A stretch of 64,000 nucleotides of DNA from an uncultured bacterium (GTDB lineage Bacteria; Oederibacteriota; Oederibacteriia; Oederibacteriales; Oederibacteriaceae): the NCBI GenBank assembly GCA_965112635.1, contig OZ218778.1:243666-307665 (forward strand), in the 5' to 3' direction. The notes below the pieces were generated by a model. The model did not search any database. It was not told where the DNA came from and saw nothing but the letters and a program-made list of their open reading frames with translations. Each line of letters begins with the position of its first letter. Position 1 is the stretch's first letter. Both the position numbers and the translations under genes were made by a program. Positions 24,135 through 30,485 of the stretch are shown here, in pieces.

Positions 24135-25280
24135 TTAGCAGTTGAATATTTTCTTTTTTTGCTTCAGGTAATATTCATAGTTTTTGAGCGGGACAGTAGG
24201 CGGGCAGCGGTGGTCAAACCCGGGCACAAACCCTCCCTGCTTGACCGTAGCTTCCAGATATCTGAGCTCGTCGTCAATATCCTTGAACGAGCCCTGTATC
24301 TTGATCTTGTCCACTCCGCCCCACAGCAGGATCTGGTCCCCATATTTAGCCCGGAGCTTGACCGGGTCCGTGCCGCAGGCGCGCTCCATGGGGAACATGC
24401 AGTTGTATCCCGCCTCCAGGAAAATGGGCACCAACAGGTTGATGTCACCGTCGCAGTCCGTATAGATCACGTCGATCCCGTATTTGTGGAGCAGGCGGCT
24501 GATCTTCTTGTACTGGGGCAGGACATACTGGCGGTACATGGCCGGCGAGATCATGGGCCCGTTCTTAAAAGCCACATCCTCCCAGCCGTGGGCAAAATCG
24601 AACTGGACTTCCTTGAGAGCCGGTTCGATCAGGGCGCAGATAAAATCACCCATATACTCGATCATCTCGGCCATAAGCTCCGGCTGGTCGTAAAAAGCCA
24701 CGGTGATGTTCTCGAAACCCATCCAGTCACGGGGCTTGCCGATCATAGAGCCAATATCTATGCCCACGGGTACTTTGCGGTTGATCCAGCCCTCCACGTC
24801 CTTTTTCCAGGTCTTCGGATATCGCCCGGGGTCATGCGGGTCCAGCCTGGTCTTTTTGAACTCTTTCCAGTCCGCTGGGCCTTTGATGGGGAATTCGATG
24901 AAATGAGGGATGGAGGACATGCCCTTCTTTCTATTGATCTCGCATGTGACGCCGTTAGCGTCGATCATGATGACATGGCTTTCGCTTTTTTCCAGTATCC
25001 TTTCCTCAAAGTAGGGGTAAACATTCGTTTGTATCCCGTCCCCTTCGCAGCTTTCGATCCCGAAATACTGGTAGGCGGTCGCCTCGTCCTTGACCCATGC
25101 AGGCAGGCCCTGCTGGTGCCAGACATCCAGGGTCTCTTCCCAATACCCGAACTCAAAATTGGGGATCCTGTCCACGCTTTGATAATGCATGGTGCGCTGG
25201 AAGCGCTCCCGCGGGGACATGCTCTTATTCTTTTTGGGAGCCTGTTTTTTATCCGCTATTTTTTTAGCCGCTTTGACCAT
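24135..25280 (-). CDS. uroporphyrinogen decarboxylase (URO-D)/MtaA-family protein with Lys-rich N-terminal extension
   Basis: URO-D-like fold; ATG at 25280 has GGAGGGG RBS; alternative starts at 25364 and 25220. Confidence 0.75.
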   Translation of the reverse strand: MVKAAKKIADKKQAPKKNKSMSPRERFQRTMHYQSVDRIPNFEFGYWEETLDVWHQQGLPAWVKDEATAYQYFGIESCEGDGIQTNVYPYFEERILEKSESHVIMIDANGVTCEINRKKGMSSIPHFIEFPIKGPADWKEFKKTRLDPHDPGRYPKTWKKDVEGWINRKVPVGIDIGSMIGKPRDWMGFENITVAFYDQPELMAEMIEYMGDFICALIEPALKEVQFDFAHGWEDVAFKNGPMISPAMYRQYVLPQYKKISRLLHKYGIDVIYTDCDGDINLLVPIFLEAGYNCMFPMERACGTDPVKLRAKYGDQILLWGGVDKIKIQGSFKDIDDELRYLEATVKQGGFVPGFDHRCPPTVPLKNYEYYLKQKKKIFNC

Positions 25281-25388
25281 GGATCCCCTCCACAACGCGT
25301 AAGGAACGATGAAGTAATGATTGACCCTCAATAATAGAACAGGGGTACCCAATTGTAAATACAACGGATACCCCTGATCCTTATTAAA

Positions 25389-26207
25389 TTATGGGCGTTT
25401 TTTGGCCAGTCCCAGGAATGATACGACGACCAGCAACAGAACCGGCATAACCCCAAAACAAACCACGATGAAAGGGCCCGTGGGCATATCCAACCCGTAG
25501 CTGACGGCCATGGCCCCCAGGCTAACGATGAACCCGAAAACCCAACCGAAGATCAGCCTGGCCTTTATGGTGGTAAAAAAGTATGTGCTAATCAGCGAAG
25601 GCACGATCAGGTACGAGAAGACCTGCAGGACACCCGCGATGCTCACCGAGGAAGTGATGACGATCCCGAACAGCACATAGAACAGCAGGTCCCATCCCAT
25701 GGTCCTCTCGGTCCGGCGCCCGAAAGAAACATCCAGTAGGGGCTTGCGGAAAACATAATGGATCAACCCGACCACCGCGTAAATGACCGCCGTCTTGACC
25801 ACATCATGCCAGGTCACCCACAGGATCTGCCCGGCCAGCAGGTCTTTGATGTGTTCCAGGCCGTGGGCCAGCCTGTTGGCCACCAGCACGACCGCGGCCG
25901 AGGAAAGGGCGAAAACAACACCAATGATCGCTTCCTGCGAGAACATGCTTTCTTGTCTCCGGGCCAAGGCGAATATCCCAGCCGCCAAAAAGGTCGAACA
26001 TAAGGAGATGAAATAAAGGGTCAGAGAGTGTTCCTCGAACCCCAGCAGCAAAGCCACCGAGGCCCCCAGCGCCGCGACCTGGGCCAGGGAGAGATCCACG
26101 AAAATCACTCCCCTGGCCAGCACATGCATGCCCAAGTAGCAATGGATGCCCGCTAAAATAAGGGACATCACAAAAGGCGCTAAAAGGAACTGAATAGCTT
26201 CGTTCAT
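25389..26207 (-). CDS. metal ABC transporter permease, ABC-3 (ZnuB/MntB/TroC-like)
   Basis: 272-aa polytopic membrane protein of ABC-3 size and pattern. Confidence 0.85.
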   Translation of the reverse strand: MNEAIQFLLAPFVMSLILAGIHCYLGMHVLARGVIFVDLSLAQVAALGASVALLLGFEEHSLTLYFISLCSTFLAAGIFALARRQESMFSQEAIIGVVFALSSAAVVLVANRLAHGLEHIKDLLAGQILWVTWHDVVKTAVIYAVVGLIHYVFRKPLLDVSFGRRTERTMGWDLLFYVLFGIVITSSVSIAGVLQVFSYLIVPSLISTYFFTTIKARLIFGWVFGFIVSLGAMAVSYGLDMPTGPFIVVCFGVMPVLLLVVVSFLGLAKKRP

Positions 26208-27128
26208 TTATTTACCCTCAATGATCGAGACAAGCCGCTCCACCAGGTCGTCAGTGGTCTTGACGGCTGGCTCTCCGCCGACCTCCTCCGGAACCATGAC
26301 CACCCTCATTCCCGGCACCTCCTGGATGACCTTGTCGGCAAAGCTGGTGTCAAAGACATTCTCCACCATGATCAGCTTGATCCCCTGCTCTTTGGCCACC
26401 CGGATCACTTCCAGGATATGCTTGGCCGTGGGCGGGATACCGGGTTTTGGCTCCATGGTGATGGGATTCTCGATACCGAACCGGTCAAAGAAATAATTGA
26501 GCGTTTTGTGATAGGTGATGATCTTCTTGACGCCGGCCTTGTTGATTCTGTCCAGCCATGCCTTGGTCTTTTCCTCCAGTCGTTGCTGCATTTTTTTGGC
26601 GTTATCCATGTAAAGATCGGCGTGTTCCGGGTCCATTTCTCCCAGATGTTCGGCGACTTTGATCGCCACCTGTCCTACCCGGATGGGATCAGTCATAAAG
26701 TGGGGATTTCCAAAAGGATGGACATCTCCTTCTGCCCTGGAAACCTTGGTATTGGGAACCTCGATGGTCTCGATGAATGGCCCCACCTCCAGATAACCGG
26801 CAGTTCCCGGCATGACTTTGGGATTGCGCGCCCCCTGCAGGATGGGAGGCAGCCATCCTATCTCCAGCTCCAGCCCGATGGACACTACCAGGTCAGCGCG
26901 ATTGACCTTGACCATATAGGAAGGTTTGGCCTCTATGTAATGGGGGTCCTGGGTCCCTTTGGACAGGGACTCCACGGTCACATGATCCCCGCCGATCTCC
27001 GAGACCATGGCGGCCAGGTCCGGGATGGTTGTGATCACGTTAAGTTTAGCCTGCGCTGGTCTGGCCAAGGCACACGCCACGACCAAACCAAACATCGTTA
27101 ATGTTCGTTTCATAATGGTCCTCCTCAA
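26208..27128 (-). CDS. metal ABC transporter substrate-binding protein (ZnuA/TroA-like)
   Basis: signal peptide, cluster-9 SBP-like sequence with His/Glu/Asp metal-site region. Confidence 0.85.
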   Translation of the reverse strand: MRRTIMKRTLTMFGLVVACALARPAQAKLNVITTIPDLAAMVSEIGGDHVTVESLSKGTQDPHYIEAKPSYMVKVNRADLVVSIGLELEIGWLPPILQGARNPKVMPGTAGYLEVGPFIETIEVPNTKVSRAEGDVHPFGNPHFMTDPIRVGQVAIKVAEHLGEMDPEHADLYMDNAKKMQQRLEEKTKAWLDRINKAGVKKIITYHKTLNYFFDRFGIENPITMEPKPGIPPTAKHILEVIRVAKEQGIKLIMVENVFDTSFADKVIQEVPGMRVVMVPEEVGGEPAVKTTDDLVERLVSIIEGK

Positions 27129-27131
27129 CGT

Positions 27132-28229
27132 TTAGTAAGAATGGGCGGGATGAGCGCCGATGGTGATGTTCATTTGCACGCTGACTTTATTCTCAGGGGT
27201 ACCTAGCCCGTCCTCCAAATGGTCGTACTGTAGCCTAAAACCTGAAAACTCGGAAGGCAGCAGCGCCAGCAGCACGCTTTCTTTTTTCTGGGTCTGGACT
27301 ATTCCCTGCTGGGCCGCGCTAATATCCTGGACTCCCGCCTGGGCATCTTCAAACCTGGCCTGGATCCACCACAGTTCGGCGAACTGGTACTGCACCCAAG
27401 TGGCCATGCCACTCTGGAACTCTCCGTTGGGGTCTCCTTTAAGGTCAGCCCAGAGGCACTCCGTGTTCCAGATCATGGAGTTGTATTTGCCGCCCACCAG
27501 GGGACGCCATTTAAAGGTCAGGTCCGAACCATAAACCTGGGAGTAGGAGCCGTACTGGTTGTTTCCTTCAGTGCCGGACACACCCCAGTCCATCGTGGTC
27601 TCTTCGGTCAAGTCCCAAAGGTTCCTTAAATGGACCAAAGACGCCGGGCTGTTGCGGTCAGGACTATCGTAGAGGATGGAGTTGGTCCCCTGAAATTCCT
27701 GCACCGTGAGCTCCATGAACCAGTCCGTGGGCATCAAAAAGGCGCCCGAAACGCCCACTCCGCTCAAGCTGTCTCCCACCAGCTCCTGGTCGATCAGGGG
27801 CGCGTCAATGAAGGGAAAGGCATGGGTATGCATGGTATTGTGGCGATCCAGGGCGGTCTTAAATTTCCCCAGTTTAAAGGTCATGCCTGAAAGATCGATG
27901 GTTTCCACAAAGACCTCTTCGGGGTCGATCCCAAAATCTGAAGTCGGGGAGTCCTGACTGATGGAAAGCAGGGCATTGGCGTGGAAATAAGGGTCCACGT
28001 CGGAAAAGAACTGCATCTCCGCTTCCTGCAAATAGAACCCGTTTAACTCATTGGGAAACAATGTGGAAGTATCGTTTCCCCTGTTACTGTTCTGATAAAG
28101 GGTTAAAAAATTAACTGATGTATCGGGATTGGCGTATTTGGTGTTGGCATTGACCTGGGCCGTCAGGGGCAAGGCACACAGGAGGGCCGCTGCCATGAAT
28201 ACACCTATGCCCGAATATAATTTAGACAT
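27132..28229 (-). CDS. putative outer-membrane beta-barrel protein/porin
   Basis: signal peptide MSKLYSGIGVFMAAALLCALPLTAQ, alternating amphipathic pattern, C-terminal aromatic; AAGGAG RBS. Confidence 0.5.
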   Translation of the reverse strand: MSKLYSGIGVFMAAALLCALPLTAQVNANTKYANPDTSVNFLTLYQNSNRGNDTSTLFPNELNGFYLQEAEMQFFSDVDPYFHANALLSISQDSPTSDFGIDPEEVFVETIDLSGMTFKLGKFKTALDRHNTMHTHAFPFIDAPLIDQELVGDSLSGVGVSGAFLMPTDWFMELTVQEFQGTNSILYDSPDRNSPASLVHLRNLWDLTEETTMDWGVSGTEGNNQYGSYSQVYGSDLTFKWRPLVGGKYNSMIWNTECLWADLKGDPNGEFQSGMATWVQYQFAELWWIQARFEDAQAGVQDISAAQQGIVQTQKKESVLLALLPSEFSGFRLQYDHLEDGLGTPENKVSVQMNITIGAHPAHSY

Positions 28230-28256
28230 AGTTTTCTCCTTAATTTTTTAGTTGAC

Positions 28257-28280
28257 GAACCTGTAGCGTTTAACAGGTTC
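28257..28280. promoter_or_regulatory. 8-bp inverted repeat GAACCTGT-N8-ACAGGTTC just upstream of the OMP/SBP/permease operon RBS
   Basis: read directly. Confidence 0.3.
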
Positions 28281-28296
28281 TACGGAACCTAACGAA

Positions 28297-28563
28297 TTAG
28301 GAGACGGCAGGCGGAGCCTTGTTGCTGATCAGTTCCTTGGCTGGAGTGGGTAAAAAATCAGGGATGGGATTGGGTAAGAATGAAATGAATTCGAACTGGG
28401 GAGTGATGACCACGGCCTCTACCGTGCTGACGAATACGCATTGGCCCCAGTTGCACGCTAAACAATGGTCATCGGGTTCATCCAAGGGATGGTTATGGAG
28501 GAATGGGATAGCTGAAAACCACAAACACAGAACGATAAATAATATTTTTTTGGTCAGTGTCAT
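28297..28563 (-). CDS. small secreted/membrane protein with HNH..DxxDH and CxxC motif (possible metal-binding)
   Basis: 88-aa ORF from ATG 28563; signal-like MTLTKKILFIVLCLWFSAIPFL then HNHPLDEPDDHCLACNW. Confidence 0.4.
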   Translation of the reverse strand: MTLTKKILFIVLCLWFSAIPFLHNHPLDEPDDHCLACNWGQCVFVSTVEAVVITPQFEFISFLPNPIPDFLPTPAKELISNKAPPAVS

Positions 28564-28620
28564 GGCTATAAGGCTAACCCTTCTCACCCAATAAAGTCAA
28601 GAGAGTAGAAGTTTGTATCA

Positions 28621-29244
28621 TTACTCGTAGCAACCACAGTCTTTGCTGCTAGCGTTCTCCCAGCCTTCCCGGCCGATGAGCACGGCAATGCCCAGGCTGG
28701 TGACCGAGTCAAACCAGGCCAGCCCGGTCGCGGTAAAGAGAAACGACCCGGCCAAAAGCAATCCGGACAACCACATGCAGGATAAGGTGCAAAAAGCATC
28801 GGCCTCCAGGGCCGGACTGCGCAATCCCTGGGCCGCCTGCTTTTTATAATGATAGAGGACAAACATCACTCCCAGGGAGATGACGGCAATGATCATGCCG
28901 GGCAAACCGGTCTTGGGCCTGAACTTATCGCTCCACTCCAGGACCACTCCGGCCGCCAGCAGGACGGACAATAATAAAAGGAACCAGCCGATGATGCGGT
29001 GGGCCAGGTGTTCGGCCCCGGCTGTCCGTGTTTTTTTGGATTCCCTGCGGCTGAAACACCATAGCACCACGACCGCCGAGGCGGTCTCGATAAGGCTGTC
29101 GAACCCGAACCCCAAAAGGGATAGGGACTCCGCGGCCAGGCCGAACCACAGGCTCACCAAAAACTCGGCCAGGTTGTAAAAGACCGAAGCCCAGGCCAAA
29201 ACAAGGGCCAGCTTTACCCACTGGCGCCGTGGTACTTTTTTCAT
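28621..29244 (-). CDS. cation-diffusion-facilitator-like membrane protein, TM domain only
   Basis: ~207-aa polytopic protein with CDF-like TM motif SLSLLGFGFDSLIE and C-terminal CGC; AAGGAG RBS before ATG 29244. Confidence 0.5.
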   Translation of the reverse strand: MKKVPRRQWVKLALVLAWASVFYNLAEFLVSLWFGLAAESLSLLGFGFDSLIETASAVVVLWCFSRRESKKTRTAGAEHLAHRIIGWFLLLLSVLLAAGVVLEWSDKFRPKTGLPGMIIAVISLGVMFVLYHYKKQAAQGLRSPALEADAFCTLSCMWLSGLLLAGSFLFTATGLAWFDSVTSLGIAVLIGREGWENASSKDCGCYE

Positions 29245-29255
29245 ACACACTCCTT

Positions 29256-29299
29256 AAAAAAGAAAAGCAGCCTTCGCTTAGATAAGAAGACTGCTTTTC
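29256..29299 (-). terminator. candidate rho-independent terminator after the small ORF (9-bp stem, 20-nt loop, T6 on minus strand)
   Basis: GAAAAGCAG...CTGCTTTTC inverted repeat followed on the minus strand by TTTTTT. Confidence 0.4.
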
Positions 29300-29316
29300 T
29301 CAGAATCCCTAATAGA

Positions 29317-29388
29317 CTAACAGCATTTCCCCTTGTGAACCTTACCACAACCAGGGCACTTCTTTGCTTTTTTTGTCTTTTTCGCCAT
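29317..29388 (-). CDS. unannotated 23-aa Lys/Cys-rich small ORF (MAKKTKKAKKCPGCGKVHKGKCC)
   Basis: ATG 7 nt after AGGAGGG, below the ORF-track size cutoff, followed by the terminator hairpin; 50 nt downstream of the URO-D gene. Confidence 0.3.
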   Translation of the reverse strand: MAKKTKKAKKCPGCGKVHKGKCC

Positions 29389-29438
29389 ATGCCCTCCTTT
29401 CTTTACAGCATTATACTCCAAAAACATTTCAAGTAAAT

Positions 29439-30485
29439 CTACCCTGCTTTTCTAGCCTCGTCATACATGGCCACGATGTTCTCCACCGGCGTGATGGACT
29501 GGATATTATGGCAGGGCGATAGGATATACCCCCCTCCCTCACCCAAAATCCTGATATTATCCCGGACCTCCTGCCTGACTTCGGCAACCGTTCCAAAGGG
29601 CAGGGTCTGCTGGTTGTCCATGGCTCCGTGGAAGCACAGCTTGGCGCCGAAGGTTTTCTTGAGCACCTGCCGGTCCATCCCTGCGCAGCGCCACTGGATG
29701 GGGTTCAAAATATCCACCCCGATCTCGACCAGGTCCGGGATGATGGCTAGGATGGCCCCGTCGCTGTGGGTCATGACGTAAGCCCCGTGCTTGTGCACCA
29801 ACTCCATCATTTTTTTCATCCTCGGTTTTAAAAATTTCCTGAAAATAGCCGGGCTGTACAAAAGGGATTCCTGGGTCCCCAGGTCTTCGGCGATATAGGC
29901 AATATCAATGTTCCCCTTGGCAGCAATGAGGGTCTTTTCGTTCAGTTCGTAATGGATCTGGAAGATCCGCTCCAGGGCCGCTTCCACCATCTCCGGATTC
30001 TCGTAAAAGTCGGACATGGCCTGTTCCATGCCCCGCATATAGCTATAAAGCCACATCGGCTCAAAGTAACTTCCCTGGATGGGTCTGCCCTTGTATTCCA
30101 GGCATTTGTCCAGGACATTTTCAAAGGTCCACCATTTTGGATCCGGCCAGGGATAATCTTCCATCTCCTTGACGCTGGTGATCTTGGCCAGGGGGTTGCG
30201 GGCTATCTCATCATAAGTTCCGGCGCCGTTGGCATAGTTGACCTTCCGCCACTCCATGCCCCAGATATCCGCCTTGCCCCGTTCCTTGGCATGGGGGTCG
30301 TGCAAATCCCCGCCCACCCCCACAACGCGGTCTATGTTCAGTTTGGCCCAAAGTTCATCCGGGTTCTTGCATTTCAATTCTTGGAGAAGCTTATCGGTGA
30401 TCTCCGGTGTTCCCCAGTAATCCGTCGGGATATGGTCCACGCCTTTCTTGGCTATGGTCGCTCTCCAGCGTTCCTTAGAAGTCAT
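29439..30485 (-). CDS. uroporphyrinogen decarboxylase (URO-D)/MtaA-family protein
   Basis: 348-aa ORF with URO-D-like fold. Confidence 0.8.
   Translation of the reverse strand: MTSKERWRATIAKKGVDHIPTDYWGTPEITDKLLQELKCKNPDELWAKLNIDRVVGVGGDLHDPHAKERGKADIWGMEWRKVNYANGAGTYDEIARNPLAKITSVKEMEDYPWPDPKWWTFENVLDKCLEYKGRPIQGSYFEPMWLYSYMRGMEQAMSDFYENPEMVEAALERIFQIHYELNEKTLIAAKGNIDIAYIAEDLGTQESLLYSPAIFRKFLKPRMKKMMELVHKHGAYVMTHSDGAILAIIPDLVEIGVDILNPIQWRCAGMDRQVLKKTFGAKLCFHGAMDNQQTLPFGTVAEVRQEVRDNIRILGEGGGYILSPCHNIQSITPVENIVAMYDEARKAG

Follow-up and report, generated by a model that had tools for sequence, protein, structure and literature searches.

We analyzed a 64,000-nucleotide stretch of an uncultured Oederibacteriota bacterium (GenBank assembly GCA_965112635.1, contig OZ218778.1) – referred to here as the window – and identified an 88 amino acid (aa) open reading frame (ORF) at 28297..28563 on the minus strand that, judged from its sequence, is a real and conserved yet unannotated gene. 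The ORF adjoins a gene for a 207-aa cation diffusion facilitator (CDF) family transporter (28621..29244, minus strand) and lies directly upstream of a ZnuA/ZnuB-type uptake operon. We think it rather probable that the ORF encodes a nascent-peptide sensor of a metal, probably zinc, that gates the uptake operon, and that the CDF protein is a co-recruited exporter.

An original prediction, made from the sequence alone, had described the two ORFs as a small exported protein with a His/Cys motif and a membrane protein with a CDF-like transmembrane (TM) region. Both lie where it had put them, with ATG starts and on the minus strand, as does the whole block. The two genes adjoin, 57 nt apart, and transcription puts the CDF gene first and the 88-aa ORF second. 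The 88-aa ORF is followed, after 67 nt, by a gene for a 365-aa secreted protein (27132..28229) and then by genes for ZnuA (26208..27128) and ZnuB (25389..26207).

The 88-aa ORF belongs to a conserved family

We first judged the 88-aa ORF to be spurious, because a word-indexed protein search gave no match, the ORF had not been called as a gene and its codon usage was poor. Several features do count against a translated gene. The codon-usage score of the ORF is 0.05, compared with a gene mean of 0.26; this is below 97.5% of real 88-codon gene segments in the window, and 28% of spurious ORFs score higher. Its Shine–Dalgarno sequence is weak, and gene callers pass over the ORF. GC content is 47.7%, compared with 55% for genes. 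The sequence was not found in a 15-billion-protein collection, and an independent assembly of the same organism (L001) leaves the ORF uncalled. A second assembly carries the identical ORF sequence.

An exhaustive phmmer search of 1.84 billion representatives returned a single full-length match (P0048, E = 9e-6), and a two-sequence profile then recovered 12 proteins of 94–103 aa, one of them present as a 68-aa fragment. Several of the 12 are labelled Nitrospinaceae or Nitrospina. A 13th relative is an unannotated 99-aa copy in a Nitrospina locus (L093, 7394..7693, plus strand; also in L094), where it stands in tandem behind the annotated family member P0055, within a supposed 479-nt intergenic region. 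This second upstream ORF (uORF2) has identical motifs, a 43-residue spacer and the end RAPPSFRS*, and lies directly 5′ of a gene for a 375-aa orthologue of the window's 365-aa protein.

The phmmer and profile searches thus define a coherent family in conserved synteny, and on this ground we rejected the spurious-ORF reading. The original prediction had named non-conservation of the small ORF, or an unrelated family for the membrane protein, as grounds for abandoning it; neither applies, since the ORF has conserved relatives and the membrane protein falls in the CDF family. A metagenome scan for close relatives of the window locus, meant for estimating the ratio of nonsynonymous to synonymous substitutions, yielded nothing above 49% identity.

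Conserved motifs resemble those of metal-sensing arrest peptides

The 88-aa product opens with Lys-Lys and 16 hydrophobic residues (Kyte–Doolittle 15-mer maximum 2.57), which agrees with the export signal that had been predicted for it. An export helix (residues 3–22) is followed by the putative metal-binding motif HNHPLDEPDDHCLACNW, correctly noted in the original prediction (residues 23–39; 28447..28497, minus strand), with the pattern H23-N-H25…H33-C34-x-x-C37-x-W39. A 44-residue spacer then leads to K82-A-P-P85 (28309..28320, minus strand), after which only A-V-S and the stop codon remain.

We aligned the window sequence with 12 relatives (alignment A5, 13 sequences) and found that H23, N24, H25, L27, H33, C34, C37 and W39 are invariant. 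The family consensus consists of a basic/hydrophobic N-terminus and an invariant P-x-L-H-N-H-x-L-(D/E) … H-x-x-C-x-x-C-x-W; the CXXC (C34-L-A-C37 in the window) is kept in all 12 aligned relatives and in uORF2. Between the CXXC and (R/K)APP the sequence is barely conserved, though this spacer keeps its length: exactly 43 residues in each of 12 Nitrospinota members, compared with 44 for the window ORF. RAPP is present in all 12 full-length relatives (11 from the alignment plus uORF2), three residues from the end – or four in uORF2. The window copy has KAPP in the same position, Arg being replaced by Lys, and likewise ends three residues later. An AlphaFold2 (AF2) model of the 88-aa product contains only an N-terminal helix (residues 3–17), and its predicted local distance difference test score (pLDDT) is below 50 for residues 46–82.

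This architecture recalls two described copper-sensing leaders. DUF2946/CruR proteins are defined by an export signal, a CXXC, RAPP three residues from the end and a spacing of 45 residues, give or take 1–2 (Roy et al. 2022, PMC9426467). CruR itself (Bordetella pertussis Bp2923) is an upstream ORF with RAPP-dependent arrest that is relieved by copper via the CXXC, and the TonB-dependent transporter encoded downstream is under its control (PMC9426467). CutF belongs to the same family. It is exported during translation, and binding of copper to its Cys motif makes it stall at a C-terminal Pro repeat, which melts a stem-loop that masks the Shine–Dalgarno sequence of the next gene (Ozturk et al.). 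By the published rules, CutF-like proteins are shorter than 150 aa, carry a signal peptide, have PP among their last 15 residues and are followed within 1000 nt by a gene on the same strand; a Cys/His site was observed in that family but is not one of the rules (Ozturk et al. 2023). The window ORF has 88 aa, an export helix, PP at residues 84–85 and the same-strand 365-aa gene 67 nt away, and its HNH…HCxxC is a Cys/His site of the kind seen in the CutF-like family.

Neither the 88-aa product, a 96-aa version of it nor P0048 matched any family, PF11162 (DUF2946) included, in hmmscan even at E = 10, and this lack of a match tells against a simple equation with CruR. With zero Pfam or NCBIfam matches, membership in DUF2946, DUF6660 or similar Pfam families was rejected. 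We keep the leader outside DUF2946 because PF11162 does not match it and because the window copy has Lys in place of Arg.

The same evidence bears on a different view, in which the 88-aa ORF yields a genuine small metal-binding protein, periplasmic or anchored in the membrane, that serves as a chaperone or metallophore-like shuttle and passes metal among the outer-membrane protein, ZnuA and the CDF. The export signal and the strict conservation of the His3/Cys2 motif would fit such a protein, which is always encoded alongside metal-transport genes, and since CruR and CutF are exported too, an additional role in trans is conceivable. Beyond the motif, however, what has been kept is the spacer length and the stop-proximal RAPP and not the sequence; AF2 gives no fold past the helix, and translation signals and codon usage are poor. 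Ordinary proteins strongly avoid RAPP, which marks arrest peptides and is enriched close to the C-terminus of small secretory proteins encoded 5′ of regulated genes (PMC12992588). The leader gene is, moreover, always first in the operon. Because only the motif, the spacer length and (R/K)APP are conserved, because no fold is predicted past the helix and because the ORF stands directly 5′ of the operon, we favor a regulatory leader over a working periplasmic protein and consider the chaperone view quite improbable.

A further small ORF was observed about 5 kb from a window-type short CDF in a Pyrinomonadaceae locus (L080, 1062–1520, minus strand). It combines a TM helix, HRH, CSDCLIC, a 44-residue spacer and GRAPPFTS*, resembles a DUF2946-type leader and is also missed by Pfam.

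Putative leaders head Znu-type operons that include a tail-less CDF

We examined the genomic context of the leader family and found all seven distinct contexts to be alike: the leader is followed by a secreted protein without a Pfam match (282–297 or 365–375 aa), ZnuA, in some cases ZnuC, then ZnuB and a CDF that lacks the cytoplasmic C-terminal domain ('tail-less'). This bears out the proposed link of both genes to a ZnuA-type system, since every leader-bearing cluster has ZnuA/ZnuB together with a tail-less CDF, in each case one with a Cys-containing site. In L089–L092, L095, L096 and one further contig, the CDF gene is the last of the cluster and starts 2–3 nt past the end of znuB. In two Nitrospinota lineages the two genes are fused into a continuous ORF of 481–482 aa (L093 and L094, 12377–13822 in both; L098, 9960–11408). 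The linker of this ZnuB–CDF fusion contains a D/S-CC motif (…TVTDCCSGLEKE…).

The Nitrospina locus L093 comprises two sub-operons. The first encodes the leader(s), the 375-aa protein, ZnuA1 and ZnuB1 without an ATPase, and is orthologous to the window block (37, 42 and 35% identity for the 365-aa protein, ZnuA and ZnuB, respectively). The window differs in that its CDF gene lies 5′ of the leader and belongs to another CDF subfamily. The distance between the CDFs counts against our reading: window and Nitrospinota CDFs match with a BLASTP E value of 2 and an hhalign probability of 71%. They were therefore rejected as orthologues and are related only at superfamily level. Nitrospinota CDFs carry D-D on TM2, C-x-x-x-D on TM5 and an N-terminal CC; a PDB sequence search with one gave nothing useful.

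Because the window and Nitrospinota CDFs fall in different subfamilies, the same module has drawn in two unrelated tail-less branches, both of which carry Cys in the transport site and a Cys pair at one terminus. For the same reason, the leader and CDF genes are fellow travellers in one module and not a co-evolving pair. Linkage or fusion of a CDF lacking the C-terminal domain (CTD) to ZnuB is not described in the CDF literature that we searched, and the constant association of leader, Znu genes and tail-less CDF, fusions included, seems not to have been described before.

The 207-aa protein is a tail-less CDF with a thiolate in its transport site

The CDF-like TM region, the CGC end and the missing cytoplasmic domain had all been read correctly from the sequence. 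The 207-aa protein scores 65.4 bits with Pfam Cation_efflux (PF01545; cut-off 26.6), the match covering profile positions 2–191 of 198. No Pfam match was found for the cytoplasmic ZT_dimer domain (PF16916), the chain ending 8 residues past TM6 with KDCGCYE. The NCBIfam model of full-length CDFs (TIGR01297) is matched only over positions 5–189 of 285, its TM half, with 63.1 bits against a cut-off of 82.35. AF2, run on a 28-sequence alignment, produced six helices with a pLDDT of 92; in a Foldseek search of the PDB, ranks 1–39 were all YiiP, ZnT1/3/4/7/8 or SLC30A10, with TM-scores of 0.53–0.73, most of them at least 0.6.

A profile alignment to Shewanella YiiP places D49 and E53 at the TM2 ligand positions, while C152 and C156 fall where YiiP has the His and Asp of TM5, so that the canonical site A quartet (DD-HD or HD-HD) is not present and the window has D49/E53/C152/C156. 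We found at least 147 homologues of the window-type CDF in GTDB species genomes, from Acidobacteriota, Bdellovibrionota, Planctomycetota, FCPU426 and other groups; a set of 47 homologues all measure 148–252 aa, most of them about 200–215. In a family alignment of 72 sequences (71 from GTDB genomes and the window protein), 70 keep D49, 70 keep E53, 69 keep C156 and 66 have a C-terminal Cys pair. At position 152, 53 sequences have Q, nine have E and eight have C, giving the site quartets DEQC (52), DEEC (9) and DECC (8). We conclude that the 207-aa protein is a member of a known, widespread and uncharacterized class of tail-less CDFs, distinguished by a conserved thiolate in the transport site.

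Neighbors in the GTDB loci are mostly heavy-metal efflux genes – CzcA-like RND pumps in 21 loci, with CzcB, ArsR and MerR recurring. In 19 of the loci (L034, L071 and 17 others; Pyrinomonadaceae and other Acidobacteriota), a full-length CzcD-like CDF gene lies directly 5′ of the short CDF gene on the same strand, a median of 93 nt away, which suggests that the full-length and tail-less proteins may form a heteromeric pair. In an Oligoflexia locus (L004, 7724–7984, plus strand), a Lys-rich 86-aa secreted ORF stands directly 5′ of the short CDF gene; its sequence CKDCGKPETQCEC is faintly like a 23-aa peptide encoded upstream of the window CDF gene (described below).

The context of the window-type subfamily tells against a general tie to zinc import. 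ZnuA was found nearby in 0 of 79 GTDB loci by tblastn, and three other close relatives of the window CDF sit among unrelated arginine/lipid genes. Searching the 79 loci by tblastn with the window ZnuA, ZnuB and 365-aa protein returned nothing, and ZnuA/ZnuB adjacency was rejected as a general trait of window-type CDFs. The closest relative, P0002 (55% identity over the BLASTP match), ends an operon encoding a 343-aa protein, ZnuA, ABC-3 and a TonB-dependent receptor.

The importer has zinc-type components

Consistent with the zinc-type assignment, the substrate-binding protein (SBP) encoded at 26208..27128 matches Pfam ZnuA (E = 8.6e-49), has AztC as its top NCBIfam match and has as its best PDB matches the zinc-binding SBPs Lbp, Lmb, Synechocystis ZnuA and AdcAII, with which its ligands (His, His, His, Glu) align. 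The permease at 25389..26207 matches Pfam ABC-3 (E = 2.1e-22). No ABC ATPase gene was found in the operon, and none is visible in the 64-kb window; Nitrospina ZnuA1–ZnuB1 (L093, 8923–10671) likewise lacks an adjacent ATPase gene, and ZnuC is encoded in the second Nitrospina sub-operon.

The 365-aa protein, encoded first after the leader, has a signal peptide and a C-terminal …GAHPAHSY. It has no Pfam or NCBIfam match, and a PDB sequence search gave nothing useful; over 340 aa it is 37% identical to the 375-aa Nitrospina protein (L093, 7768–8895). This secreted family of 365–375 aa shares a conserved C-terminus, …G(A/S)HPAH(S/K)Y. The protein is outer-membrane-like and probably an outer-membrane channel dedicated to the uptake system. 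The proteins of 282–284 aa encoded 3′ of the leader in most Nitrospinota loci (L089, 2083–2937; L091, 7416–8270; L095, 1723–2577; L098, 7402–8250) share a conserved H-(E/Q)-x-GAPFS immediately behind their predicted signal peptide, and this N-terminal His could be a metal ligand.

The module might instead handle copper or another soft metal, the leader sensing copper and the Cys-site CDF moving Cu(I) or Cd. Characterized relatives of the leader all sense copper and not zinc, which counts against a zinc assignment, and every DUF2946-type leader studied experimentally responds to copper. The CxxC and the TM Cys favor soft metals, and the Nitrospinota proteins of 282–297 aa start with a conserved N-terminal His past the signal peptide. 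Against this stand the SBPs, with zinc-type ligands and best matches among zinc SBPs, and the DHDHDHAH loop of the L089 ZnuA. Three His and two Cys in the leader would suit Zn2+ well, and we know of no cluster A-I SBP for copper. On balance we regard the soft-metal alternative as unlikely.

A predicted RNA switch joins the leader to the next gene

CutF acts through a stem-loop over the Shine–Dalgarno sequence of the next gene, and a comparable structure is predicted in the window. In the minimum free energy (MFE) fold of the RNA from the KAPP codons to the next start codon, RNAfold predicts a stem-loop (28235..28304, minus strand) in which UCUCCUAAUU (28295–28304) pairs with AAUUAAGGAGA (28235–28245). 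UCUCCUAAUU comprises the last two sense codons of the leader, its stop and the next two bases, whereas AAUUAAGGAGA is the Shine–Dalgarno region of the 365-aa gene; their duplex encloses an inner 8-bp hairpin at 28257–28280. The fold has an MFE of −27.7 kcal/mol (z = −3.74 against shuffles). Masking the region that a ribosome would cover if stalled with its P and A sites on the Pro codons removed the pairing between the Shine–Dalgarno region and the leader 3′ end; only weak local pairing of the Shine–Dalgarno sequence was then predicted.

In four distinct Nitrospinota sequences with the 282–297-aa protein 3′ of the leader (L089, L091, L095 and L098), the last leader codons and stop (UUUCAUAG or UUUCAUAA) pair with the AUG region UAUGAAA, forming 8–11 bp across 113–129 nt. 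These duplexes beat 97–99.7% of random windows in three of the four loci. Inspecting the pairs by hand in these four sequences, we saw covariation at the third base of the stop and the following bases: G-C in L089, A-U plus AC/GU in L095 and G-U plus ACA/UGU in L098.

Thermodynamic modeling thus predicts a translational switch for the window operon. Several results pull the other way. The terminal duplex of the window alone is no stronger than that of random windows, and for uORF2 and the 375-aa gene of L093 the Shine–Dalgarno sequence pairs inside the intergenic region (z = −1). Given these two results, an RNA mechanism is not demonstrably conserved for window-type operons, and Rho-dependent polarity, as in CruR, is an equally possible alternative to an RNA switch. 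An Rfam scan of the entire window gave zero matches.

A model for metal-gated expression of the uptake operon

The model starts from what was observed – conservation, motifs, spacing, synteny, ZnuB–CDF fusions and the CDF fold. The N-terminal helix of the leader would bring the nascent chain to the membrane. With the ribosome at (R/K)APP, the His3/Cys2 motif would be just out of the exit tunnel because it lies 44 residues back, and its metal occupancy would decide whether the pause on the Pro-Pro codons lasts. A paused ribosome would cover the last three codons and the stop. Pausing would turn on the downstream operon of outer-membrane protein, ZnuA and ZnuB, and release would turn it off. Because the regulated genes encode an importer with a zinc-type binding protein, CruR-like logic seems most likely: without metal the ribosome would pause and the operon would be expressed, whereas binding of metal, probably Zn2+, would cause release and shut down uptake.

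The CDF is an inner-membrane transporter and not a periplasmic protein. It would most likely form a dimeric antiporter, moving a thiophilic divalent metal (Zn2+/Cd2+) out of the cytoplasm in exchange for protons by way of its Cys-containing site and cytoplasmic CxC tail. Encoded together with an importer, it could serve as a built-in relief valve, which is the least certain part of the model; yeast ZRC1 is reportedly induced under zinc limitation and would offer a precedent for a CDF co-induced with uptake against sudden metal excess. Alternatively, the thiolate site may remove mis-imported Cd2+. In the ZnuB fusions, two CDF domains would be joined on the permease dimer, an arrangement that could replace the dimerizing role of the missing CTD. 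Of the periplasmic metal-handling pair in the original prediction, the link to a metal module stands; the small protein is probably a regulatory leader instead.

What we infer here is that the ribosome pauses, which way pausing acts, which metal is involved, how the RNA switches and in which direction the CDF transports. A bolder version holds that the leaders form a Pfam-invisible family of zinc-sensing nascent-peptide switches gating Znu importers in Nitrospinota and at least one other lineage, and that tail-less Cys-site CDFs work physically with ZnuB, coupling import and export in one complex. We put this forward tentatively, as a doubtful though possible extension.

One objection to the model concerns the window copy itself. 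Arg has been reported as irreplaceable in ApcA, ApdA, ApdP and SecM (PMC12992588), and a copy with KAPP may have a weakened RAPP-type arrest or none. CutF, however, functions with GPPPRL and no Arg, so we treat KAPP as a caveat and not as a refutation. The ORF could still be a decaying or inactive leader remnant, with the operon controlled by other means and the CDF an unrelated neighbor. The Lys in an otherwise invariant RAPP would fit decay, as would the low codon score, the low GC content, a terminal duplex that is not significant and the other contexts in which window-type CDFs usually occur. Set against these are an intact frame, the retention of the other invariant residues, of the 44-residue spacer and of the 3-residue tail, and an identical sequence in the second assembly. 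CutF shows that a Pro repeat can work without Arg, and the CDF–Znu link is seen independently at P0002 and at the Nitrospinota loci. We judge decay to be distinctly unlikely and retain the nascent-peptide sensor as the preferred reading.

Features flanking the CDF–leader–Znu block

Upstream of the CDF gene, and also on the minus strand, an unannotated ORF (29317..29388) encodes a 23-aa Cys/Lys-rich peptide, MAKKTKKAKKCPGCGKVHKGKCC, in which CPxCG resembles a zinc knuckle and the last residues are CC. The ORF has a strong Shine–Dalgarno sequence (AAGGAGG) and a promoter-like TTTACT-16-TATAAT (29437..29410, minus strand; 10 of 12 matches). A 16-bp hairpin followed by a U-run (29256..29301, minus strand) ends 12 nt ahead of the CDF start codon, and the base of the hairpin pairs with part of the CDF Shine–Dalgarno sequence. 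These features could represent a small zinc-binding peptide, a leader/attenuator of the CDF gene or just the terminator of the upstream gene.

Two paralogous genes for MtaA/CmuA-like methyltransferases of the URO-D family (24135–25364 and 29439–30485, both minus strand; 26% mutual identity) flank the block. URO-D-family methyltransferases are zinc-dependent enzymes, and the nearness of these genes to the metal block might be functional. The CDF gene and the 88-aa ORF had been thought to lie between two metal-related operons. This applies to the Znu side; on the other side is a divergent TetR-OEP-MFP-ABC2 operon, a generic efflux system without a specific metal signature.

Implications

Metal-sensing arrest peptides (CruR and CutF) have been described only in 2022–2025 and for copper only. 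If our reading is true, a divergent family heading zinc-type ABC importers would make the principle general across metals and phyla, extending arrest-peptide metal sensing from copper to zinc, and would give a regulatory explanation for Znu operons without obvious Zur control. The mechanism itself is known; what is new in this leader is its place outside the Pfam model, its extra HNH…H motif, its occurrence in Nitrospinota and one other lineage and its position at the head of Znu-type operons.

Tail-less CDFs, catalogued since 2015 as being of unclear function, would also gain one: their constant presence in these importer operons, the fusions to ZnuB and the conserved TM Cys provide a first specific, testable hypothesis. 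Existing profiles missed the leader family, and gene callers missed both the window copy and the second, tandem Nitrospina copy. A practical lesson is that an 'intergenic' gap of about 390 nt beside a metal operon may hide a conserved regulatory gene.

Comparison with known CDF transporters and arrest peptides

The 207-aa protein shares with YiiP and the ZnT transporters a six-helix CDF fold and an acidic TM2 pair at the transport site. It differs in having D-E / C-C, with D-E / Q-C in most of its family, where YiiP has DD-HD and other CDFs have HD-HD. As in the CTD-lacking class of Kolaj-Robin et al. 2015, it consists of the TM domain only, with a Cys tail. In accounts of that class (PMC6465983, PMC8341793), a Cys/His/acidic cytoplasmic tail is proposed to chelate metal and is N-terminal, as in the Nitrospinota CDFs; the Cys pair of the window protein is C-terminal instead.

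Among the arrest peptides, ApdA/ApdP and SecM (Sakiyama 2021; Morici 2024; Fujiwara 2025) resemble the leader in having a stop-proximal R-A-P-P and in being small secretory or membrane proteins 5′ of a controlled gene. They arrest with Pro codons in the P and A sites. In contrast to the leader, they monitor Sec/YidC activity and have no metal motif, and their essential Arg is missing from the window copy.

In the arrest-peptide literature searched, we found no arrest peptide linked with ZnuA or zinc import. The leader family was not found in the portion of the RAPP-survey supplementary lists consulted, though a supplementary table includes a 'zinc-regulated TonB-dependent receptor' among the genes downstream of RAPP ORFs. 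Nor did the main texts and supplements searched as text report a ZnuA/ABC-3 context for CutF-like proteins.

CutF (Rhodobacter capsulatus cutFOG; Ozturk et al. 2023, 2025) resembles the leader in its signal peptide and Cys motif and in ending with a Pro repeat that is not strictly RAPP. Its intergenic stem-loop, which covers the Shine–Dalgarno sequence of the next gene and is opened by a stalled ribosome, has a predicted counterpart in the window. CutF differs in having CxxxC and GPPPRL and in its logic: it induces a detoxifying oxidase when copper is present, the opposite of what would be expected for an importer.

CruR departs from the leader in several respects. The leader family has no PF11162 match and carries an additional invariant HNH…H ahead of the CxxC, and the window copy has KAPP. 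CruR regulates a TonB-dependent copper transporter, whereas the operon here encodes a Znu-type ABC importer with a zinc-type SBP; and where CruR has a long Rho-dependent spacer, the window has a 67-nt intergenic region in which a predicted helix masks the Shine–Dalgarno sequence. The resemblance is nonetheless extensive. Both are small exported peptides at the start of an operon for metal uptake, in which an outer-membrane protein (a probable one here) is encoded first, and both carry a CXXC and, three residues ahead of the stop, (R)APP, at a spacing of about 45 residues in CruR and 43–44 here. Both are poorly structured and weakly translated, and the AF2 picture of the window ORF is as reported for CruR. 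By analogy, we take the 88-aa ORF to work like a leader of the CruR/CutF type.

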